Of a DNA stretch of 64,000 bases, positions 51,904-64,000 are shown in pieces. Positions within the stretch are counted from its first letter, which is position 1, and each line of letters begins with the position of its first letter. A program made the translations under genes and the position numbers. The stretch covers positions 5,931 to 69,930 of the forward strand of contig JAUYIE010000004.1 of NCBI GenBank assembly GCA_030688365.1, given 5' to 3'. Origin of the DNA: a bacterium (GTDB taxonomy: Bacteria; Patescibacteriota; Patescibacteriia; JACQRZ01). The notes beneath the pieces were generated by a model. The model saw only the letters and a list, made by a program, of their open reading frames with translations, had not been told where the DNA came from and made no database searches.

Positions 51904-52080
51904 TTAAGACTTGTCTGCTAGCCTATCTTTAATGAAACCATTTTTCTTCATAAAATTGACGACCGGTTTTGCACATATTTCACACAATTCCTTTCCATTA
52001 CTAAACCATCCTATGCGGACATATATCACGGCACCGTCGGAAATCTCTTTATGACAAATATCACACTGATGTGTCGTCAT
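51904..52080 (-). CDS. Small zinc-ribbon protein (CxxC...CxxC)
   Basis: MTTHQCDICHKE...CEICAKP, 58 aa from the ATG at 52080. Lies between the hicB and vapC modules. Confidence 0.45.
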   Translation of the reverse strand: MTTHQCDICHKEISDGAVIYVRIGWFSNGKELCEICAKPVVNFMKKNGFIKDRLADKS

Positions 52081-52087
52081 AGACAAG

Positions 52088-52140
52088 CATGTTAATGTTT
52101 AGAATCCAAACGTAGCACACGAAAAAATTGAAGGCAAATG
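52088..52140. repeat. Copy 1 of an approximately 53-bp direct repeat (catgttaatgtttagaa...acgtagcacacgaaaaaa.tga.ggcaaatg), about 85 percent identical to the copy at 52925-52978
   Basis: Direct comparison of the two segments. Together they bracket vapBC. Confidence 0.7.
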
Positions 52141-52879: not shown

Positions 52880-52908
52880 ATTATGAAACATCCACTTTTG
52901 CATGTCAA
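52880..52908 (-). promoter_or_regulatory. Near-consensus sigma70-like promoter for vapBC (TTGACA-17-CATAAT on the minus strand)
   Basis: Minus strand reads ttgacatgcaaaagtggatgtttcataat, about 40 nt upstream of the vapB start. Confidence 0.4.
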
Positions 52909-52924
52909 GCGGATCAATGAGAAA

Positions 52925-52978
52925 CATGTTAATGTTTAGAACATTAACGTAGCACACGAAAAAAACTGAGGCAAATGT
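52925..52978. repeat. Copy 2 of the approximately 53-bp direct repeat; contains a perfect palindrome GTTAATGTT-TAG-AACATTAAC
   Basis: 9-bp inverted arms with a 3-nt spacer, located just upstream of the vapBC promoter and just downstream of the RT1 stop. The palindrome is degenerate in copy 1. Confidence 0.7.
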
Positions 52979-52979
52979 G

Positions 52980-53984
52980 TTACCCTGTCTCATCCAGTAG
53001 CCAATGATCGTTGAGTATACTTGTCCTTATTTTGTGGGTATTCCCATGTGATAACAGTCCGAGATATGACTGAAGCGTCGCTTCGTTAGAATCATGAGAC
53101 AACTTTTTGAACATTCGCCGTCTTGTTGTCGCCCGCAGTACATGATGATCGGCAAAGTGCACCCAGCCCAAATAATCTACCCCTGACGCAATGGTACGAA
53201 TGCTGACTTTATTGGGATGCAATGAAAGCTTGAGCTTGTCTGATAAAAAATCCTGTATCGGATCAATAGTGCGCTCGAGTATACTTCTATCCTGTGACAA
53301 CAGAACAAAATCATCGGCATATCGGATATAATGTGGCACTCGCATATCGTGCTTGATGTATTGGTCAAATAAATTCATGTATATATTGGCAAACAGTTGC
53401 GATGTAAGATTCCCCAATGGAAGTCCTTTATCACTAGACGATTTAAAACTCCCGATTATTCTTGAAAGCAACCACAATATCTTTCTGTCAGGGATATAAT
53501 CCTCCAATATACAATATAAAACGGCATGATCTATGCTCGCAAAGAATTTTCGTATATCACATTTGAGAACGTAACATGTACGAGTATTGTTCCTGCTTAC
53601 CTTGCACGAGTAAGATGTAAATCGATCCATTGCGCTGTGAGTACCTTTGCCCACACGAGCTGAAAATGAATCAGCGATAAACTTTGTTTCAAAAAAAGGA
53701 TATAATATACGGTGAAGAGCGTGATGTACCACCCGATCGCGCACCTGCGCCTTGTGGATTTCCCGTGATTTTGGATCATTGATATAAAAACGTGTATACG
53801 CGCCATGCATGTACTCACCTGACAATAGCTCCTCATGCAACGCATTGATGTTTTCAAACAGATGATCTCGAAACGCGCGGACATCCCACTTGTTCCGTTT
53901 CCCACATTCAAACTCGAGCCACGCTTCAATCAAATTGTCGTGCGAAATAATATCTTCAAATGTATGTCCCAACAATATTTTCAT
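52980..53984 (-). CDS. Diversity-generating retroelement reverse transcriptase (DGR RT1)
   Basis: RT domains 1-7, with the DGR-specific LPLGNLTSQ (GxxxSQ) replacing the group II intron QGxxxSP, plus YIRYADDFV. 334 aa. A cognate TR/VR pair lies nearby. Confidence 0.9.
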   Translation of the reverse strand: MKILLGHTFEDIISHDNLIEAWLEFECGKRNKWDVRAFRDHLFENINALHEELLSGEYMHGAYTRFYINDPKSREIHKAQVRDRVVHHALHRILYPFFETKFIADSFSARVGKGTHSAMDRFTSYSCKVSRNNTRTCYVLKCDIRKFFASIDHAVLYCILEDYIPDRKILWLLSRIIGSFKSSSDKGLPLGNLTSQLFANIYMNLFDQYIKHDMRVPHYIRYADDFVLLSQDRSILERTIDPIQDFLSDKLKLSLHPNKVSIRTIASGVDYLGWVHFADHHVLRATTRRRMFKKLSHDSNEATLQSYLGLLSHGNTHKIRTSILNDHWLLDETG

Positions 53985-54002
53985 AAAAATCCATTAAGGA
54001 AT

Positions 54003-54010
54003 CCCCCCCC
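54003..54010. repeat. Poly-C homopolymer (8 nt) in the divergent RT1-avd1 intergenic region
   Basis: cccccccc read directly. The equivalent tract in DGR2 is 10 nt. Confidence 0.9.
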
Positions 54011-54031
54011 AAGGCGTCACAAATTCCTATT

Positions 54032-54388
54032 TTGCAAAAAGCCGTAGAAACATACAAACTATGGCATTTGTTCTTACAGCAGATGCCTCGTCTTACTCGA
54101 TTTAGTCTTGGTACAAAAATCGACATATTGTTTACCGACACGTTACAGCTCATGCTCTCTGCGAAATACGCACCACGAGAACAAAAGCTGGAATACATAC
54201 GAACATTGTGCACCAACATAGATGCCATCAAATTCTTTTTGCAAATCGCGTTTGAGCTCAAGGCATTAAGCGCTAAAAAATATTCCAGTGTGTCCATACC
54301 TCTGGAAGAGATCGGAAAAATGGTCGGCGGGTGGAAAAAACAGCTGGAAAAAGAAAATCCTGCCACAAAAACTTCATGGCAGGAATGA
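54032..54388 (+). CDS. avd: Avd-like accessory variability determinant (four-helix-bundle protein, TIGR02436-like), predicted TTG start
   Basis: About 118 aa helical protein with C-terminal IPLEEIGKMVGGWKKQL, matching the Avd/23S-IVS four-helix-bundle family. Paralog at 62879-63295. Adjacent to RT and TR. Confidence 0.8.
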   Translation: MQKAVETYKLWHLFLQQMPRLTRFSLGTKIDILFTDTLQLMLSAKYAPREQKLEYIRTLCTNIDAIKFFLQIAFELKALSAKKYSSVSIPLEEIGKMVGGWKKQLEKENPATKTSWQE

Positions 54389-54399
54389 TACGAGAGAGT

Positions 54400-54523
54400 T
54401 GCTCGAACGCAAGGAAACGATAGTTGTCATTCCAATCACCAGCCAGCTTGTTGAGGTTGAGCTTACGCTTGTCGTTGTTCCTGTTCAACACAGGAGCACA
54501 CAGATCACCGTTCTCATTGCGAA
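54400..54523 (-). repeat. DGR1 template repeat (TR1), 124 bp
   Basis: Aligns base-for-base (offset +499) with 54899-55022. All 20 mismatches are T in TR on the plus strand (A on the minus strand) versus C/G/A in VR. Confidence 0.85.
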
Positions 54524-54785
54524 AATGCACGGAATATCATCTTTGACACCACCCTTTGACTCGCCATCTGGCACATTCTCGGGGTTGAATCGTATTCGGG
54601 GCATTTCAGCCCGCCAATATTCCGCACCAAGTCTCTTCGTAATCGCGAAGCAATCGGGCACACGCTGTATGGTAACAAAAAACGCCATACATTCCGGCTT
54701 CCCAAAAAGCTCCAGAGTTCGACCGCCATGAAGTCGTAACGACATGGATACTTCTCTACTTTCCAAAACTCAGTATATCACGCTG

Positions 54786-54821
54786 AATAAAAAATCCCTT
54801 AATAGTTTGTTCTATCAAGGG
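54786..54821 (-). terminator. Rho-independent terminator downstream of the DGR1 target gene
   Basis: Minus strand: CCCUUGAUAG-aacaaa-CUAUUAAGGG stem (one G-U pair) followed by AUUUUUUAUU. Confidence 0.5.
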
Positions 54822-54876
54822 AAGATAAGGGTCTAAAAATTCAAATTCTATTTCTAAACACTGAGGGACCCAGAGT

Positions 54877-55518
54877 CTAAGTGCCTTCCGAAGAAACCTG
54901 CTCGAACGCAAGGAAACGATAGTTGCCACTCCAATCACCAGCCAGCCCGTGGAGGCCGAGCAACCGCCAGTCGTTGAGCCCGTCCAACACAGGAGCACAC
55001 AGAACACCGCGCCCATCGCGAATTTCAATACCCATCAAACAAACGATTGGATATTTTAATTGTTCATCGGGGTTGTTTATGGCGTACTGTAATATTCTGG
55101 CAGGAGTAGCCTTGATCAAACCTTTTTCTTCGATCTTTTTTTCTGCATCTTCAGTCGAAATTTTTCCCAGATCAAGGATACGGACTTTTAACATTTCTAC
55201 ACCGACAGCTGGATCTATCGGAAACGTTTTTTCATTGATGTGACTGTTTACATAATAAAAATTTACGATTTTGATTTGATCGGAAAAACTCTTGTTGTTA
55301 TCAACTATTATGAGTCCAGAATTATCAACTTTCTTCGAAATTTCATTCAATGAACCGACAATAATTTGAGCAACCTTTTTCCTGCGGTCTGTGTCTTTCA
55401 AATACGCGTCTATGTGGTCATCTGTACCACCTTCATCCAGAATATCATTAAAGATAATTTTCACTACCTCAAAGATCTTTCCGAACAGTTTCAGATAACC
55501 ACTTGTTTTTTTAGCCAT
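54877..55518 (-). CDS. DGR1 variable (target) protein, 213 aa, no signal peptide; VR encodes the C-terminal roughly 41 aa
   Basis: Full ORF. The C-terminus IRDGRGVLCAPVLDGLNDWRLLGLHGLAGDWSGNYRFLAFEQ corresponds to the TR-encoded NENGDLCAPVLNRNNDKRKLNLNKLAGDWNDNYRFLAFEQ. Confidence 0.85.
   Translation of the reverse strand: MAKKTSGYLKLFGKIFEVVKIIFNDILDEGGTDDHIDAYLKDTDRRKKVAQIIVGSLNEISKKVDNSGLIIVDNNKSFSDQIKIVNFYYVNSHINEKTFPIDPAVGVEMLKVRILDLGKISTEDAEKKIEEKGLIKATPARILQYAINNPDEQLKYPIVCLMGIEIRDGRGVLCAPVLDGLNDWRLLGLHGLAGDWSGNYRFLAFEQVSSEGT
54899..55022 (-). repeat. DGR1 variable repeat (VR1)
   Basis: See TR1. The 3' end (low coordinate) has a 26-nt invariant block (putative IMH) ending 22 nt before the stop codon. 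Confidence 0.85.
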
Positions 55519-55724
55519 TTTAATGTACTCCTATTTTCGCCTACTCCTTGCTTTTCCCCTATTTTAGGGTTAGACCTAGAGCTTGCACTTATATATAACA
55601 ATACTAAGATACTTGCATATTTTACCGATTTTGTCAAGATTATGACCACCAAAAGCTTATATTTCGAAAGTGAACGAGTATTATTGAGTATGAGAAAGAG
55701 CTGACAGATATACTGAAGGGCTGT

Positions 55725-55842
55725 TTGATTTCTCTTTTAAAAATTTTATGAGCGAGTCAAGTGTTGGGAAGAAAAGTTGAAACGAGCGAATAGAAGTGAG
55801 GAGGGAGACTTACCTACTCGTTACCACCACCGTCGCCGAACG
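55725..55842. mobile_element. MITE-like element, copy 1: 118 bp with perfect 19-bp terminal inverted repeats (TTGATTTCTCTTTTAAAAA)
   Basis: Left TIR 55725-55743, right TIR 55824-55842 (exact reverse complement). The core is about 80 percent identical to the reverse complement of the core at 61784-61883. Confidence 0.7.
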
Positions 55843-55891
55843 CTTTTTAAAAGAGAAATCAAATACCCCGCTCAAGCAGGACAAACACTCC

Positions 55892-61694: not shown

Positions 61695-61764
61695 ATACGA
61701 GCATTAAAGCATGAAATTGGGAGAAAAGCGAGAGGAAAGAGGTGGTGTATCTCGAGCAGGGTAT

Positions 61765-61902
61765 TTGGTTCTTCTTTTAAAAAGCGTTCGGCAACGGTAC
61801 TGGTAATGAGTGTGTTAATCTCCCTCCTCACTTCTATTCGCTCATCTCAATATTTTCATCGTACATTTGACTCGCTCATAAAATTTTTAAAAGAAGAACC
61901 AA
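61765..61902. mobile_element. MITE-like element, copy 2: 138 bp with perfect 19-bp TIRs (TTGGTTCTTCTTTTAAAAA), inverted relative to copy 1 and overlapping the RT2 3' end
   Basis: Left TIR 61765-61783, right TIR 61884-61902. The last 15 codons of the RT2 ORF (FGSSFKNFMSESNVR) are encoded by element sequence. Confidence 0.7.
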
Positions 61903-62899
61903 ATACCTGCCATCTTACGTCACTCAAACCCCGTCTTATCTTCGCAGTGTTCCCGTGACTCAATAATCCCATATATGACTGCATTTGAGCAGGATCATTC
62001 TTTCCTGCTTTGATATGACGGAACATCCTCTTTTTTGTCGCTGTCCTCAACACTCGATGATCAGGAAAATGTACCCAACCGAGGAAATCAACACCCGATG
62101 AAAATGTTTTGAGAAAAAGCTTGTTGGGATGAAGCTGAAGATGTAGCCGTGAAGATAGAAACTCCTGAATCATCGGGACGAGTGTCTCTAACCATTCTAT
62201 GTCAGATGACAATACCACAAAATCATCAGCGTAACGTATGTAATACCGAGTGTGGGCGGTATGTTTCATAAACTGATCCAATTCATTCATATACACGTTG
62301 GCAAACACCTGTGATGTAAGATTGCCCAGTGGTAAACCGACACCGCGATGAGTCGTATGGAAACTACCGATGATGCGATACAAAAGATCAACAATCCGAG
62401 AATCGGGTATTGATAATTTCAATATATCAATAAGTACCTCATGCGATATAGACGCAAAAAACTTGCATATATCGCACTTGAGTGCCCATGCGGTACGAGT
62501 ATGATTCCTTGAAACGACATATTCCATAGAACGGAATCGATCAAGCGCTTTATGCGTTCCCTTTCCATCTCTGCATGAATACGAATCATGAATAAACCGC
62601 GTATCAACATACGGATACAATATACGATAAATTGCGCGATGGAGTACTCTGTCACGCACCGACGCCTTATGTATCTCCCGTGGTTTTGGATCATTGATGC
62701 GAAACGCCTGGTATGCACCGTGTCTGTATCTATTGGTCGCAAGGTCATGATGCAGTATAATAAGATTACTCATGAGATTCTGCTCAAATTCAATAACATC
62801 ACTGCGACAGGATTTTCCTATACGAAATTCTCGCCATGCCTCAAGGAGATTCTCAAGAGAAATAATATCTTCATACGTATGAATGAATTTTCCGGACAT
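61856..62899 (-). CDS. Diversity-generating retroelement reverse transcriptase (DGR RT2), paralog of RT1 with an element-derived C-terminal tail
   Basis: LPLGNLTSQVFANVYM and YIRYADDFV motifs. About 60 percent identity to RT1 across the full length. Confidence 0.9.
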   Translation of the reverse strand: MSGKFIHTYEDIISLENLLEAWREFRIGKSCRSDVIEFEQNLMSNLIILHHDLATNRYRHGAYQAFRINDPKPREIHKASVRDRVLHRAIYRILYPYVDTRFIHDSYSCRDGKGTHKALDRFRSMEYVVSRNHTRTAWALKCDICKFFASISHEVLIDILKLSIPDSRIVDLLYRIIGSFHTTHRGVGLPLGNLTSQVFANVYMNELDQFMKHTAHTRYYIRYADDFVVLSSDIEWLETLVPMIQEFLSSRLHLQLHPNKLFLKTFSSGVDFLGWVHFPDHRVLRTATKKRMFRHIKAGKNDPAQMQSYMGLLSHGNTAKIRRGLSDVRWQVFGSSFKNFMSESNVR

Positions 62900-63295
62900 A
62901 TCACTAATGTTACCCCCCCCCCGAGGCTTTTACCAGTCCTGCAAAAGATAAAGTCAGTATATATCCTCTGGCATGGATATTATCAGGTACTGCCAAAAAC
63001 TCATCGTTACAGTATTGGGCTTCGCATTGATACTTTATTCGTAGAGCTCATTGAAGCCACCTCCATAGCAGGATTCCTCTCTCGTGAAGAAAAACAACCA
63101 CTCGTGCGCATCGCTATCAGAAAAAATGACACCATAAAAATCTTTCTCATGGTGCTCTGGGAAACAGGATCACTAGAAACAAAACGATATGTCACACTTT
63201 CACTACCCCTAGAAGAAATCGGCAGAATGTTGGGCGGATGGAACGGACAACTACAAAAACAAAACTCTCCCGTCATTGCGAGGGGAGAGAAATGA
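62879..63295 (+). CDS. avd: Avd-like accessory protein (paralog of avd1), start uncertain (ATG 62879 overlapping the RT2 start on the other strand, or CTG 62939)
   Basis: C-terminal LPLEEIGRMLGGWNGQLQKQN aligns with avd1 IPLEEIGKMVGGWKKQLEKEN. N-terminal (L)QKIKSVYILWH aligns with avd1 (L)QKAVETYKLWH. Confidence 0.7.
   Translation: MNEFSGHITNVTPPPRLLPVLQKIKSVYILWHGYYQVLPKTHRYSIGLRIDTLFVELIEATSIAGFLSREEKQPLVRIAIRKNDTIKIFLMVLWETGSLETKRYVTLSLPLEEIGRMLGGWNGQLQKQNSPVIARGEK
62913..62922. repeat. Poly-C homopolymer (10 nt) between the RT2 start and the avd2 core
   Basis: cccccccccc read directly. Lies inside the avd2 ORF if translation starts at ATG 62879, and upstream of it if translation starts at CTG 62939. 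Confidence 0.9.
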
Positions 63296-63301
63296 AGAGA
63301 G

Positions 63302-63436
63302 TTGCGACGGGCAAACAACAAGCGATTGTCGGGATTGAGCATGTTGTCGGGATGAATGTAGTTCGTGTTGAGCCAGAACTCACCATCGTTGAAATTCACG
63401 TTGAACACGTTGGGATCGCCATCGGAGTCCGTAATG
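63302..63436 (-). repeat. DGR2 template repeat (TR2), about 135 bp, starting 7 nt after the avd2 stop
   Basis: Aligns at offset +498 with 63800-63934. 15 of 16 mismatches before the ragged 5' end are T in TR (plus strand) versus N in VR. Confidence 0.8.
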
Positions 63437-63515
63437 TATACCATGCCATCTGTGCCACTGCCTTATGATTACTCACAAAGCTGTATCGAATCTGCGATCA
63501 ATAATCGCCCAGCAT

Positions 63516-63543
63516 AATATACCAAGTATCTTCGTTTTTTGAA
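63516..63543 (-). promoter_or_regulatory. Candidate promoter for TR2 RNA (minus strand TTCAAA-16-TATATT), about 70 nt upstream of the TR2 5' end
   Basis: Read from the sequence. Weak match to the consensus. Confidence 0.25.
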
Positions 63544-63727
63544 TAATCTCAATCACCACACTACCCCCAATCGTAATCAAGGATATTCTGGATGAAGGGA
63601 TACTGGCTTCGGCCGCGGGAAACCATAATCTCCCGCACGATTCACCTAGCGCCACAATCAGTATACCCTTAATTTTCCAAAAAAATATTCCTCGCCATAA
63701 TTATGGTTTGGAATATTATTCAATATT

Positions 63728-63742
63728 AGGTCTAAGAGCTCG
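63728..63742. other. GC-rich hairpin (GCTCGC-ttc-GCGAGC) about 60 nt downstream of the VR2 3' end
   Basis: Perfect 6-bp inverted repeat. A second hairpin (GCGGGA-n10-TCCCGC) lies at 63621-63642. Confidence 0.35.
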
Positions 63743-63795
63743 CTTCGCGAGCAAGTAACAAAGTGCAGAAGAGTTAATCCTCCAAAAACTAAGAG

Positions 63796-64000
63796 CTACT
63801 TGCGACGGGCAAACAACACGCGAGCGTCGGGATCGAGCATGCGGTCGGGATGAATGTAGTCCGCGTAGAGCCAGAACTCACCACCGTCGAAATGCACGTT
63901 GAACACGTCGGGAGCGCCAGCGGAGTCCGTAATGGTATCCATGGCGAGAATAGCCCAGTTTCTGTCGTCTTTTTCTGCTTTTTTCAAAACGACTTCTATT
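63796..64000 (-). CDS. DGR2 variable (target) protein, C-terminal part only; the ORF is open to the window edge and VR2 encodes the last roughly 45 aa
   Basis: C-terminus ITDSAGAPDVFNVHFDGGEFWLYADYIHPDRMLDPDARVLFARRK matches the TR2-encoded ITDSDGDPNVFNVNFNDGEFWLNTNYIHPDNMLNPDNRLLFARRN. Stop TAG at 63796-63798. Confidence 0.7.
   Translation of the reverse strand, partial: IEVVLKKAEKDDRNWAILAMDTITDSAGAPDVFNVHFDGGEFWLYADYIHPDRMLDPDARVLFARRK
63800..63934 (-). repeat. DGR2 variable repeat (VR2)
   Basis: See TR2. Asn (AAC/AAT) codons in TR correspond to D/H/Y/A/R codons in VR. Confidence 0.8.

Follow-up and report, generated by a model that had tools for sequence, protein, structure and literature searches.

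A complete diversity-generating retroelement of the Patescibacteria (CPR) type with a conserved structured leader RNA 5' of its template repeat

The region from 52980 to 55518 of the window (the whole 64,000-nucleotide stretch of DNA analysed here) is a genuine diversity-generating retroelement (DGR) of the Patescibacteria (CPR) type, in which every defining component is intact. The cassette is ordered as the target gene with its variable repeat (VR), a structured leader RNA, the template repeat (TR), an inverted avd and the reverse transcriptase (RT), which corresponds to architecture B3, and the RT, TR and target all lie on the minus strand while avd lies on the plus strand. This identity follows from the combination of an intact DGR-clade RT, an Avd protein, an adenine-specific TR/VR pair and a VR located at the 3' end of a target predicted to be lectin-like, so that the proposal of a complete DGR in an earlier note on this DNA is supported. 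The joint best explanation of the locus, which is considered very probable, is a complete chromosomal CPR DGR of architecture B3, for which a leader-RNA-primed mechanism of mutagenic retrohoming is proposed.

The RT gene (52980-53984, minus strand; 334 aa; Pfam RVT_1, E 1.5e-23) carries both of the signatures first read in it, the DGR-diagnostic [I/L]GxxxSQ motif in the form LPLGNLTSQ (53397-53423, minus strand) and the catalytic YADD box (53310-53321, minus strand). Among solved structures in the PDB, the best match is to the Bordetella phage bRT (8ub7; E 1.2e-46, 163 bits), and in this alignment GNLTSQ falls opposite GSLTSQ and YADD opposite YMDD, whereas group II intron RTs match at E 3e-19 or weaker in the same comparison. 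The SQ motif, the Y(A/M)DD box and bRT as nearest structure thus place the enzyme in the DGR clade, as judged by match scores. An RT of the retron, group II intron or defence type, accompanied by a repeat that is an ordinary partial gene duplication, might be entertained because the top NCBIfam match is a group II intron RT model; this match reaches 147 bits against a cutoff of 300, and the nine families listed include no DGR RT model, the library apparently having none. However, the bRT match is far stronger than any match to a group II or retron RT, and the SQ motif, the neighbouring Avd, the adenine-specific mismatches (p ~1e-13) and the recurrence of the cassette in more than 70 genomes all indicate a DGR, such that this reading is effectively refuted and its probability negligible. 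Group II intron RTs are the nearest non-DGR relatives of the enzyme, but the latter is without maturase or endonuclease domains and has SQ in place of the group II SP, and a search of Rfam found no group II intron RNA domains at the locus. With retrons the element shares a structured non-coding RNA beside the RT gene, and both retrons and the phage DGR are modelled as priming from an internal nucleotide's 2'-OH; yet the element has no msr/msd inverted repeats, possesses Avd, a TR/VR pair and adenine mutagenesis, and is matched far more weakly by retron RT models.

The accessory gene avd (54032-54388, plus strand) encodes the 118-aa Avd that had been claimed to adjoin the RT and that proves to be real, although RT, TR and target all lie on the other strand: its product matches PF22296 (bAvd; E 1.5e-12, 48.4 bits) above the cutoff of 40 bits, and matches NF033474 (DivGenRetAVD) at E 6e-20 with 71.5 bits, below the 80-bit cutoff of that model. 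Upon re-alignment, the 124-nt TR (54400-54523, minus strand) again pairs without gaps to the VR (54899-55022, minus strand) at an offset of 499, with weak VR similarity extending to 54393. The two repeats differ at 21 positions, 20 of which are minus-strand adenines of the TR (12 A>G, 5 A>T and 3 A>C), the sole exception being a T>G difference (plus-strand A at 54465, C at 54964). Expressed by TR base, 20 of the 33 adenines are changed in the VR (hypergeometric p = 1.8e-13) against 1 of the 91 non-adenine positions, and the mismatches are therefore not spread over the four bases. The adenine bias described in the earlier note accordingly stands, but its count of 20 of 20 becomes 20 of 21, as the T-to-G difference had been missed. 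Adenine-restricted differences of this kind are the footprint of mutagenic retrohoming. The TR codons changed are mainly AAC (5), AAG (3) and AAT (2), which bears out the variable AAC and AAT codons noted before and adds AAG to them. At the VR 3' end the invariant block also holds, although its length is 27 nt (54400-54426 and 54899-54925) rather than the 26 first given; it is the putative initiation of mutagenic homing (IMH) region, beyond which GCAG/GTTTCT in the VR faces GCAA/CTCTCT in the TR, as in an IMH/IMH* pair, and the region is not notably GC-rich. A GC-rich hairpin or cruciform downstream of the IMH is present in ~34% of DGRs and is not strictly defining. Here there is none right after the IMH, the fold of 54835-54915 (minus strand) being no better than shuffled sequence (z = 0.34), and the nearest hairpin beyond it is the terminator of the target gene, ~55 nt past the stop codon. 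There is one VR per TR within the window, in which no extra VRs were found for the TR of this element or for that of a second DGR (DGR2, 61856-64000).

The VR lies in frame and spans the last ~48 codons of the target gene (54877-55518, minus strand), which encodes a variable protein of 213 aa, predicted to consist of a helical N-terminal region and, after it, a C-type-lectin-like domain in which the VR lies. This fold is a confident prediction that resembles a C-type lectin, and the Foldseek match of the predicted structure to lectins is not significant. No membrane segment is recognisable in the protein, and its family comprises ~700 clusters and has no Pfam match. The transcript of the target gene appears to end at an intrinsic-terminator-like hairpin followed by a T-run (54795-54822, minus strand; terminator scan, DNA-fold z = -3.3), in agreement with the separate terminator earlier placed at 54786-54821.

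A recently inactivated DGR relic, in which the VR is the record of past retrohoming by a system now defunct, would accommodate the single non-adenine mismatch and the missing IMH-adjacent hairpin, and it would also accommodate the identity to the window sequence of the only other copy found (in a Logan contig) and the absence of any match in an exact-flank search of JGI metagenomes; the cluster of the target protein has one member. The relic is nonetheless improbable, as none of the RT, Avd and target ORFs is truncated, the catalytic and DGR motifs are preserved, a model derived from other genomes gives the leader RNA a score of 82 bits, and the 1 in 91 non-adenine differences imply almost no neutral drift since the last homing.

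The element itself is ordinary, with the layout and host lineage that would be expected of one further member of the CPR DGRs. More than 585 relatives of the RT were found, and the best 80 (55-61% identity) are nearly all from Patescibacteria MAGs. In all 74 related Patescibacteria loci that include upstream sequence, an inverted avd immediately precedes the RT, and in ~66 related loci the TR measures 90-141 nt and ends 0-50 nt from the avd stop codon, with the VR 360-730 nt upstream and TR/VR mismatches nearly all at A; a target of the same family is present in 28 related loci. Architecture B3, TR-(avd)-RT, is reported as that of 90% of the DGRs in CPR bacteria (Wu et al. 2018, PMC5758913), and an avd inverted relative to the RT is their normal layout (Wu et al., PMC5758913). 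With the CPR B3 DGRs (PMC5758913; DGR clade 2, Roux et al. 2021, PMC8144416) the element shares gene order, strands and the inverted avd between TR and RT, as well as a single adjacent target, a chromosomal location and a small target protein without transmembrane or known domain; no essential difference from the CPR B3 DGRs is apparent. A MITE-like repeat near both DGRs of the window is absent from every related locus, and it was therefore rejected as a DGR part and treated as an unrelated, genome-specific repeat.

Immediately 5' of the TR lies a conserved structured RNA of ~215 nt that is supported by covariation. Its core (54524-54661, minus strand, as are all its parts) is recognised by covariance model R1 at E 2.7e-15, and is made up of the 5' strand of helix P (54633-54642), a nearly invariant ACUUGG linker (54627-54632), the two strands of helix 8 (54616-54627 and 54527-54538, the latter ending 4 nt before the TR), a hairpin (54598-54615) and a further helix (54581-54587 with 54547-54554). 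The 5' part of the leader (54662-54780) contributes hairpins at 54726-54749 and 54664-54695, and the matching helices covary in alignment A5. The 3' strand of helix P, CUCUCGUA (54389-54396, minus strand), is directly 3' of the TR and pairs with 54633-54642 of the leader. In alignment A5, 91.7% of cells pair as compared with 38-50% in slid controls, and the covariation score is 0.673 as compared with 0.12-0.19. For helix P, alignment A6 gives 82-90% of cells paired and changes on both sides in 9 of 9 pairs, and compensatory duplexes occur in many loci (e.g., L030, L077, L042, L057 and L011). Helix P is short and in the present element (DGR1) needs a bulged A, and its covariation support is weaker than that of the other helices because its sequence is strongly conserved. 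Homology between TR and VR begins 4 nt past helix 8 and stops 0-6 nt short of the helix P strand, from which it follows that the TR fills precisely the interval that these helices delimit. Model R1, which was built without sequences from the window, has exactly two matches in the window, each abutting a TR, and one match in each of 72 related loci, while 728 kb of unrelated viral contigs searched as a negative control returned 0 matches; a looser leader-motif pattern gave nothing but chance matches in IMG/VR. A small conserved ORF in the spacer between VR and TR was considered and rejected, as the longest ORFs fall on differing strands and frames between loci, which favours an RNA. Rfam at permissive thresholds gave chance-level matches only, and a local hairpin (CUUCA...UGAAG) that might compete with helix P as a switch was dropped because its pairing was no better than that of shuffled partners. 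The leader structure was taken from comparative analysis only, and folding the entire putative transcript as a single sequence gave no useful information (z = -1.1).

Signals flanking this module point to a transcript of its own. An extended -10-like sequence, TGATATACT (54772-54780, minus strand), is located 5' of the leader hairpins, and 35 of 66 loci have a TGnTAnnnT signal at ~232 nt upstream of the TR, as against 0 of 63 in a control region. On the other side, 15 nt past the TR and within the antisense of the avd 3' end, a 12-bp hairpin (54358-54384) is followed by a U-run (54348-54357; both minus strand; terminator scan, DNA-fold z = -3.7), an arrangement that either terminates transcription of the TR RNA or serves as a stem-loop to which Avd binds. 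In at least 55 of 66 loci a comparable hairpin with a T-rich tail is found past the TR, its stem sequence differing between loci, and in DGR2 it occupies 63265-63289; the hairpin and U-run overlap avd coding sequence, and this overlap could contribute to the conservation of the hairpin. The 47-nt divergent intergenic region between avd and the RT contains a poly-G tract, G8 on the minus strand (C8 on plus; 54003-54010). Only two G/C runs of at least 7 exist in the 64-kb window, the second at the equivalent place in DGR2 (62913-62922). Of 74 related loci, 60 have a G run of 7-14 at the avd-RT position, as compared with 8 runs of this length elsewhere in 602 kb. No description of the leader RNA, of the post-TR hairpin and U-run as characteristic of the lineage, or of the poly-G tract was found in the literature searched, nor were the leader RNA and a poly-G switch found in Rfam 15.

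These features allow a mechanism to be proposed. A separate transcript of ~400 nt would start at the extended -10 promoter (54772-54780) just past the target terminator, cover the ~215-nt leader and the 124-nt TR, and be ended or held at the hairpin and U-run (54348-54384). A single continuous leader strand would then pair with both flanks of the TR, through helix P on the 3' side and helix 8 on the 5' side, the two segments being joined by ACUUGG. RT-Avd may bind this RNA and start cDNA synthesis by cis-priming where the TR ends on its 3' side, with misincorporation opposite adenines and with helix 8 as the stopping point, whereupon the cDNA would replace the VR by way of the 27-nt IMH-like identity at its 3' end and thereby diversify ~16 codons of the target.

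The DGR of Bordetella phage BPP-1 (mtd-avd-TR-brt) is the prototype, with a DGR RNA composed of 20 nt of avd, the TR and a 140-nt Spacer. In common with it are the RT family and motifs, Avd, adenine-specific transfer from TR to VR, a VR at the 3' end of the target gene (whose protein has a C-type-lectin fold in the phage and a predicted C-type-lectin-like one here), the IMH-like identity at the VR 3' end, and an RNA topology in which one strand pairs at the 3' edge of the TR and also with the sequence immediately 5' of the TR. In the phage, this topology consists of a TR:Sp priming duplex, a priming adenosine and an avd:Sp stop duplex (Handa et al., bioRxiv 10.1101/2023.10.23.563531). However, the Spacer-like module is here 5' of the TR, whereas in the phage it is 3'; 3' of the TR there is, rather than a phage-type Spacer, antisense avd with one hairpin and U-run. 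In addition, avd is here on the other strand, such that the 3' end of avd is not available in sense orientation as the upstream RNA segment. The TR RNA further appears to be a short transcript of its own, a GC-rich post-IMH hairpin is absent, and the target is something other than a tail fibre of a phage. Neither a sequence resemblance to the phage Spacer (RT-10 motif, Weinberg et al., PMC5737381) nor an Rfam match was detected; the leader RNA may work like the phage DGR RNA, yet does not belong to the same RNA family. The roles suggested for the leader in priming and stop are by analogy of topology only, and this commonality of topology rather than chemistry leaves room for another function, namely that of a regulatory 5' leader that sets TR-RNA abundance, or of a scaffold that binds RT-Avd, with priming elsewhere, e.g., in the post-TR hairpin region or from a nicked RNA 3'-OH. 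Such a function is rather unlikely, as in dozens of loci the leader pairs on either side of the TR, within a few nt of it, which is what a start/stop device requires, the sequence linking the two pairing segments hardly varies, and the leader is always accompanied by a TR and present once per DGR; it is favoured by the report that 207 of 278 DGRs have putative Avd-binding stem-loops shortly after the TR (Handa et al., bioRxiv 10.1101/2023.10.23.563531), a pattern that the post-TR hairpin fits, and by an alternative priming mechanism that has been proposed for the phage DGR (PMC5703328). The priming and stop roles may be extended to a tentative reading, judged less likely than not, whereby B3 DGRs use a rearranged DGR RNA in which a ~215-nt 5' module replaces the phage 3' Spacer, helix P sets the cDNA start, helix 8 sets the stop, and ACUUGG may hold the priming nucleotide, all on a stand-alone ~400-nt transcript with its own promoter and with a terminator antisense in avd. 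The same reading takes the poly-G tract (7-14 nt), in the 47 nt of divergent promoter region between avd and the RT, to be hypermutable, such that slipped-strand mispairing there may turn mutagenesis on and off.

As a single locus, the element adds one entry (two with DGR2) to a catalogue of tens of thousands of DGRs, and a target family without a Pfam entry gains a predicted C-type-lectin-like fold. The comparative work is the more useful outcome, as it provides a covariation-supported RNA model for a large, uncultivated lineage of CPR DGRs. The covariance model can be used to mark TR boundaries in metagenomes, and the poly-G tract suggests on/off control of hypermutation in this lineage. The leader model bears on how cDNA may be primed and bounded when avd is inverted and a 3' Spacer is lacking, and it names the nucleotides to mutate in an RT-Avd-RNA reaction, i.e., those of helix P, helix 8 and the ACUUGG linker.

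The results support the earlier note's interpretation of DGR1 (52980-55518) as a complete diversity-generating retroelement, the underlying observation being confirmed with small corrections. By ORF map and sequence, the element comprises a 334-aa reverse transcriptase (RT) ORF (52980-53984, minus strand), a 118-aa Avd ORF (54032-54388, plus strand), direct repeat copies at 54393-54523 and 54892-55022 (offset 499 nt), and a 213-aa target ORF (54877-55518, minus strand) that carries the second copy inside its 3' end. Upon re-alignment of the template repeat (TR, 54400-54523) with the variable repeat (VR, 54899-55022), 21 mismatches were found, 20 of which lie at TR adenines of the coding, minus strand (A>G 12, A>T 5, A>C 3), the sole exception being a T>G at 54465/54964. 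The substitution table by TR base, which had been proposed as a check, shows mismatches concentrated on adenine, with 20 of 33 TR adenines altered in VR vs 1 of 91 other positions (hypergeometric p = 1.8e-13), and the codons changed are chiefly AAC, AAT, and AAG. The adenine-specific pattern described previously holds, but its count of 20 of 20 becomes 20 of 21, and the invariant block at the VR 3' end, given as 26 nt, measures 27 nt; neither correction alters the overall DGR picture. The proposed Rho-independent terminator of the target gene was recovered as a hairpin (54795-54822) followed by a T-run (fold z = -3.3). The RT matches Pfam RVT_1 and, among solved structures, is closest to the Bordetella phage DGR RT, bRT (8ub7; E 1.2e-46, 163 bits), with retron-type RTs and those of group II introns (E 3e-19 at best) far behind; all NCBIfam matches, which were to models of group II, retron, and defence RTs, are sub-threshold. 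In the bRT alignment, the DGR motif that had been read in the RT, GLPLGNLTSQLFANIY, lies opposite GIPIGSLTSQLFANVY, and RYADDFV opposite RYMDDIV. The adjacent 118-aa product, recognized earlier as Avd-like, matches bAvd above the Pfam cutoff and the NCBIfam Avd model slightly under its cutoff, and its gene lies on the opposite strand from RT and all other parts of DGR1.

An RT scan with one genome per species yielded over 585 relatives, of which the top 80 share 55-61% identity and derive almost entirely from Patescibacteria/CPR metagenome-assembled genomes; the loci of these 80 were analysed by script. An Avd homologue lies directly upstream of the RT on the opposite strand in all 74 loci with sequence upstream of the RT, so that an inverted avd is the norm in the CPR DGR lineage, of which DGR1 is a typical member. 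In approximately 66 related loci, a TR of 90-141 nt ends 0-50 nt from the avd stop codon and a VR, with mismatches nearly all at adenines, lies 360-730 nt upstream. Among all loci analysed, 28 have a target of the DGR1 target family. A second, complete-looking element, DGR2, is contained within 61856-64000, where RT2 (61856-62899, minus strand), Avd2 (~62930-63295, plus strand), TR2 (63302-63436), and VR2 (63800-63934, with TR adenines accounting for 14 of 15 mismatches) accompany a target whose gene continues past the window end and whose family differs from that of the DGR1 target. Each TR has one VR of its own, with no additional VRs for either within the window. Each DGR has one non-adenine TR/VR difference, both T>G on the coding strand (54465/54964 and 63321/63819), which could be coincidental or reflect a minor class of non-canonical misincorporation. 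RT1 and RT2 share 58% identity and the Avds 40%; as the two RTs are as divergent from each other as RT1 is from the RTs of other species, the elements are two old lineages within the same genome and did not arise by recent duplication. The DGR1 neighbourhood is chromosomal and ordinary, comprising superoxide dismutase, an exonuclease III family protein, a topoisomerase-like protein (by eye), DprA, and Der, along with PIN/MazE-type and HicB-like toxin-antitoxin genes. A 64-nt direct repeat (52077-52140 and 52914-52977, 81% identical) has, read on the minus strand, one copy that closely precedes the MazE-type antitoxin/PIN toxin pair and adjoins an 11/12 sigma-70-like promoter (52880-52908), and another that closely precedes a 60-aa zinc-ribbon-like ORF and a HicB-like ORF; it is possibly a shared operator or promoter module. 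A ~150-nt element that looks like a MITE, with terminal inverted repeats of 24-26 nt (GG.T.TTTG.TT..TCTTTTAAAAA), occurs in two inverted, ~82% identical copies (55718-55869 and 61760-61907; RNA-fold z = -3.9 and -4.6) and is absent among the 80 related loci. One is found 200 nt upstream of the DGR1 target, and the other overlaps the final ~50 nt of the RT2 ORF, providing an RT2 C-terminal extension.

Throughout the lineage, VR and TR are separated by a conserved distance (median spacer ~340 nt), and no conserved ORF was found in this spacer among the related loci. The 250 nt upstream of TR, aligned for 66 DGRs (alignment A5), are strongly conserved, and RNAalifold predicts a consensus structure of 55 pairs, in which standard pairs make up 91.7% of cells vs 38-50% in controls with partners slid by 1-3 columns, both sides are changed in 885 cells vs ~200 in these controls, and the covariation score is 0.673 vs 0.12-0.19. 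None of 500 shuffles matched the observed values on four of five measures, and three reached the fifth, the number of pairs with both-side change. Some bias is expected because alignment and structure derive from the same sequences, yet the margin of support is large despite it, and most helices contain many pair types. R1, a covariance model for the 3' half of this leader RNA that was built from 51 loci with the window sequences left out, has exactly two matches in the 64-kb window, each abutting a TR: 54524-54661 in DGR1 (minus strand, E 2.7e-15) and 63433-63556 in DGR2 (minus strand, E 3.1e-20). R1 also matches once in each of 72 related loci, including 21 outside the model-building set, always on the RT-sense strand immediately upstream of TR, vs no matches in 728 kb of unrelated viral contigs. 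No Rfam 15 family matches the leader, and no description of a CPR leader was found in the papers covered by a literature search. Three related DGRs (L009 3264-3441, L034 3293-3461, and L071 3276-3467) carry insertions of ~50-60 nt, each a hairpin-like extra domain, in the terminal loop of one helix, which shows that this loop tolerates expansion. Two minus-strand ORFs of 85 and 93 aa (54273-54530 and 54485-54766) overlie TR and leader, the former resembling the target C-terminus through reading across TR, and one public assembly annotates an 86-aa "gene" in this region (L081 1774-2034); such calls are probably spurious, made over noncoding RNA.

An extended -10-like signal (TGnTAnnnT) occurs ~232 nt upstream of TR in 35 of 66 loci vs 0 of 63 in a control region, and in DGR1 (TGATATACT, 54772-54780) directly follows the target terminator. 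At the other end, a 7-12 bp hairpin with stem sequences that vary between loci is found with a U-rich run ~10-15 nt after TR in at least 55 of 66 loci; in DGR1, both hairpin (54358-54384, z = -3.7) and U-run (54348-54357) are embedded in sequence antisense to the avd 3' end. In combination, the signals at the two ends suggest that the TR RNA is a separate transcript of ~400 nt, and the hairpin could be the "Avd-binding stem-loop" of Handa et al., a terminator, or both. TR is further bracketed by two long-range pairings. Helix 8 (12 bp; 96.8% of cells paired, both-side changes in 10 of 12 pairs) has a 3' strand (54527-54538) that stops 4 nt short of the TR start (54523). Helix P joins the leader segment immediately 5' of helix 8 (consensus AAAUGAAGA; in DGR1 UUACGAAGAG, 54633-54642, with one bulged A) to a strand 0-6 nt beyond where TR/VR homology ends (consensus UCUUCAUUU; in DGR1 CUCUCGUA, 54389-54396). 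Its native partners pair better than shuffled ones, 82-90% of cells pair on alignment A6 with some both-side changes in 9 of 9 pairs, and compensatory duplexes of 7-12 bp are clear in the sequence-divergent loci L030, L077, L042, L057, and L011. The two leader strands are separated by ACUUGG (54627-54632), in which one G is invariant and the A almost so. The Bordetella phage DGR has a 140-nt Spacer 3' of TR that pairs with the TR 3' end, supplies the priming adenosine A56, and forms with a 20-nt avd segment immediately upstream of TR a duplex that halts cDNA synthesis (Handa et al., bioRxiv 10.1101/2023.10.23.563531). The CPR leader lies 5' of TR, but its strands follow the Spacer's order and bracket TR in the same manner. 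It is possible that its role is purely regulatory or one of scaffolding; because the topology is shared, the best reading, by analogy, is that the leader may be the functional counterpart of the Spacer in an architecture whose TR 3' side is occupied by antisense avd. The TR survey of Handa et al. spanned 40 nt upstream and 100 nt downstream (bioRxiv 10.1101/2023.10.23.563531), such that a CPR leader would escape detection. The phage Spacer was described as the RT-10 motif by Weinberg et al., who speculated that other DGRs are served by further RT-associated motifs (PMC5737381).

Within the window, G/C homopolymer runs of at least 7 occur only twice, as C8 (54003-54010) and C10 (62913-62922); they read as G on the minus strand and lie one per DGR, midway along the short intergenic region between the divergent avd and RT genes. 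In 60 of 74 related loci, the same position is occupied by a G run of 7-14 (mode 10), vs 8 such runs elsewhere in 602 kb. This tract could act as a slipped-strand on/off (phase-variation) switch for the divergent promoters, or could be a G-rich ribosome-binding element for RT. Current activity of DGR1, while unproven, is likely from its sequence, as the ORFs are intact, almost no non-adenine drift is seen, and the RNA element is intact. The features of DGR1 that go beyond the ordinary, namely a structured leader RNA with Spacer-like topology, a hairpin with U-run that follows TR and is antisense to avd, and a poly-G tract, are properties of the lineage as a whole and are not specific to this window.
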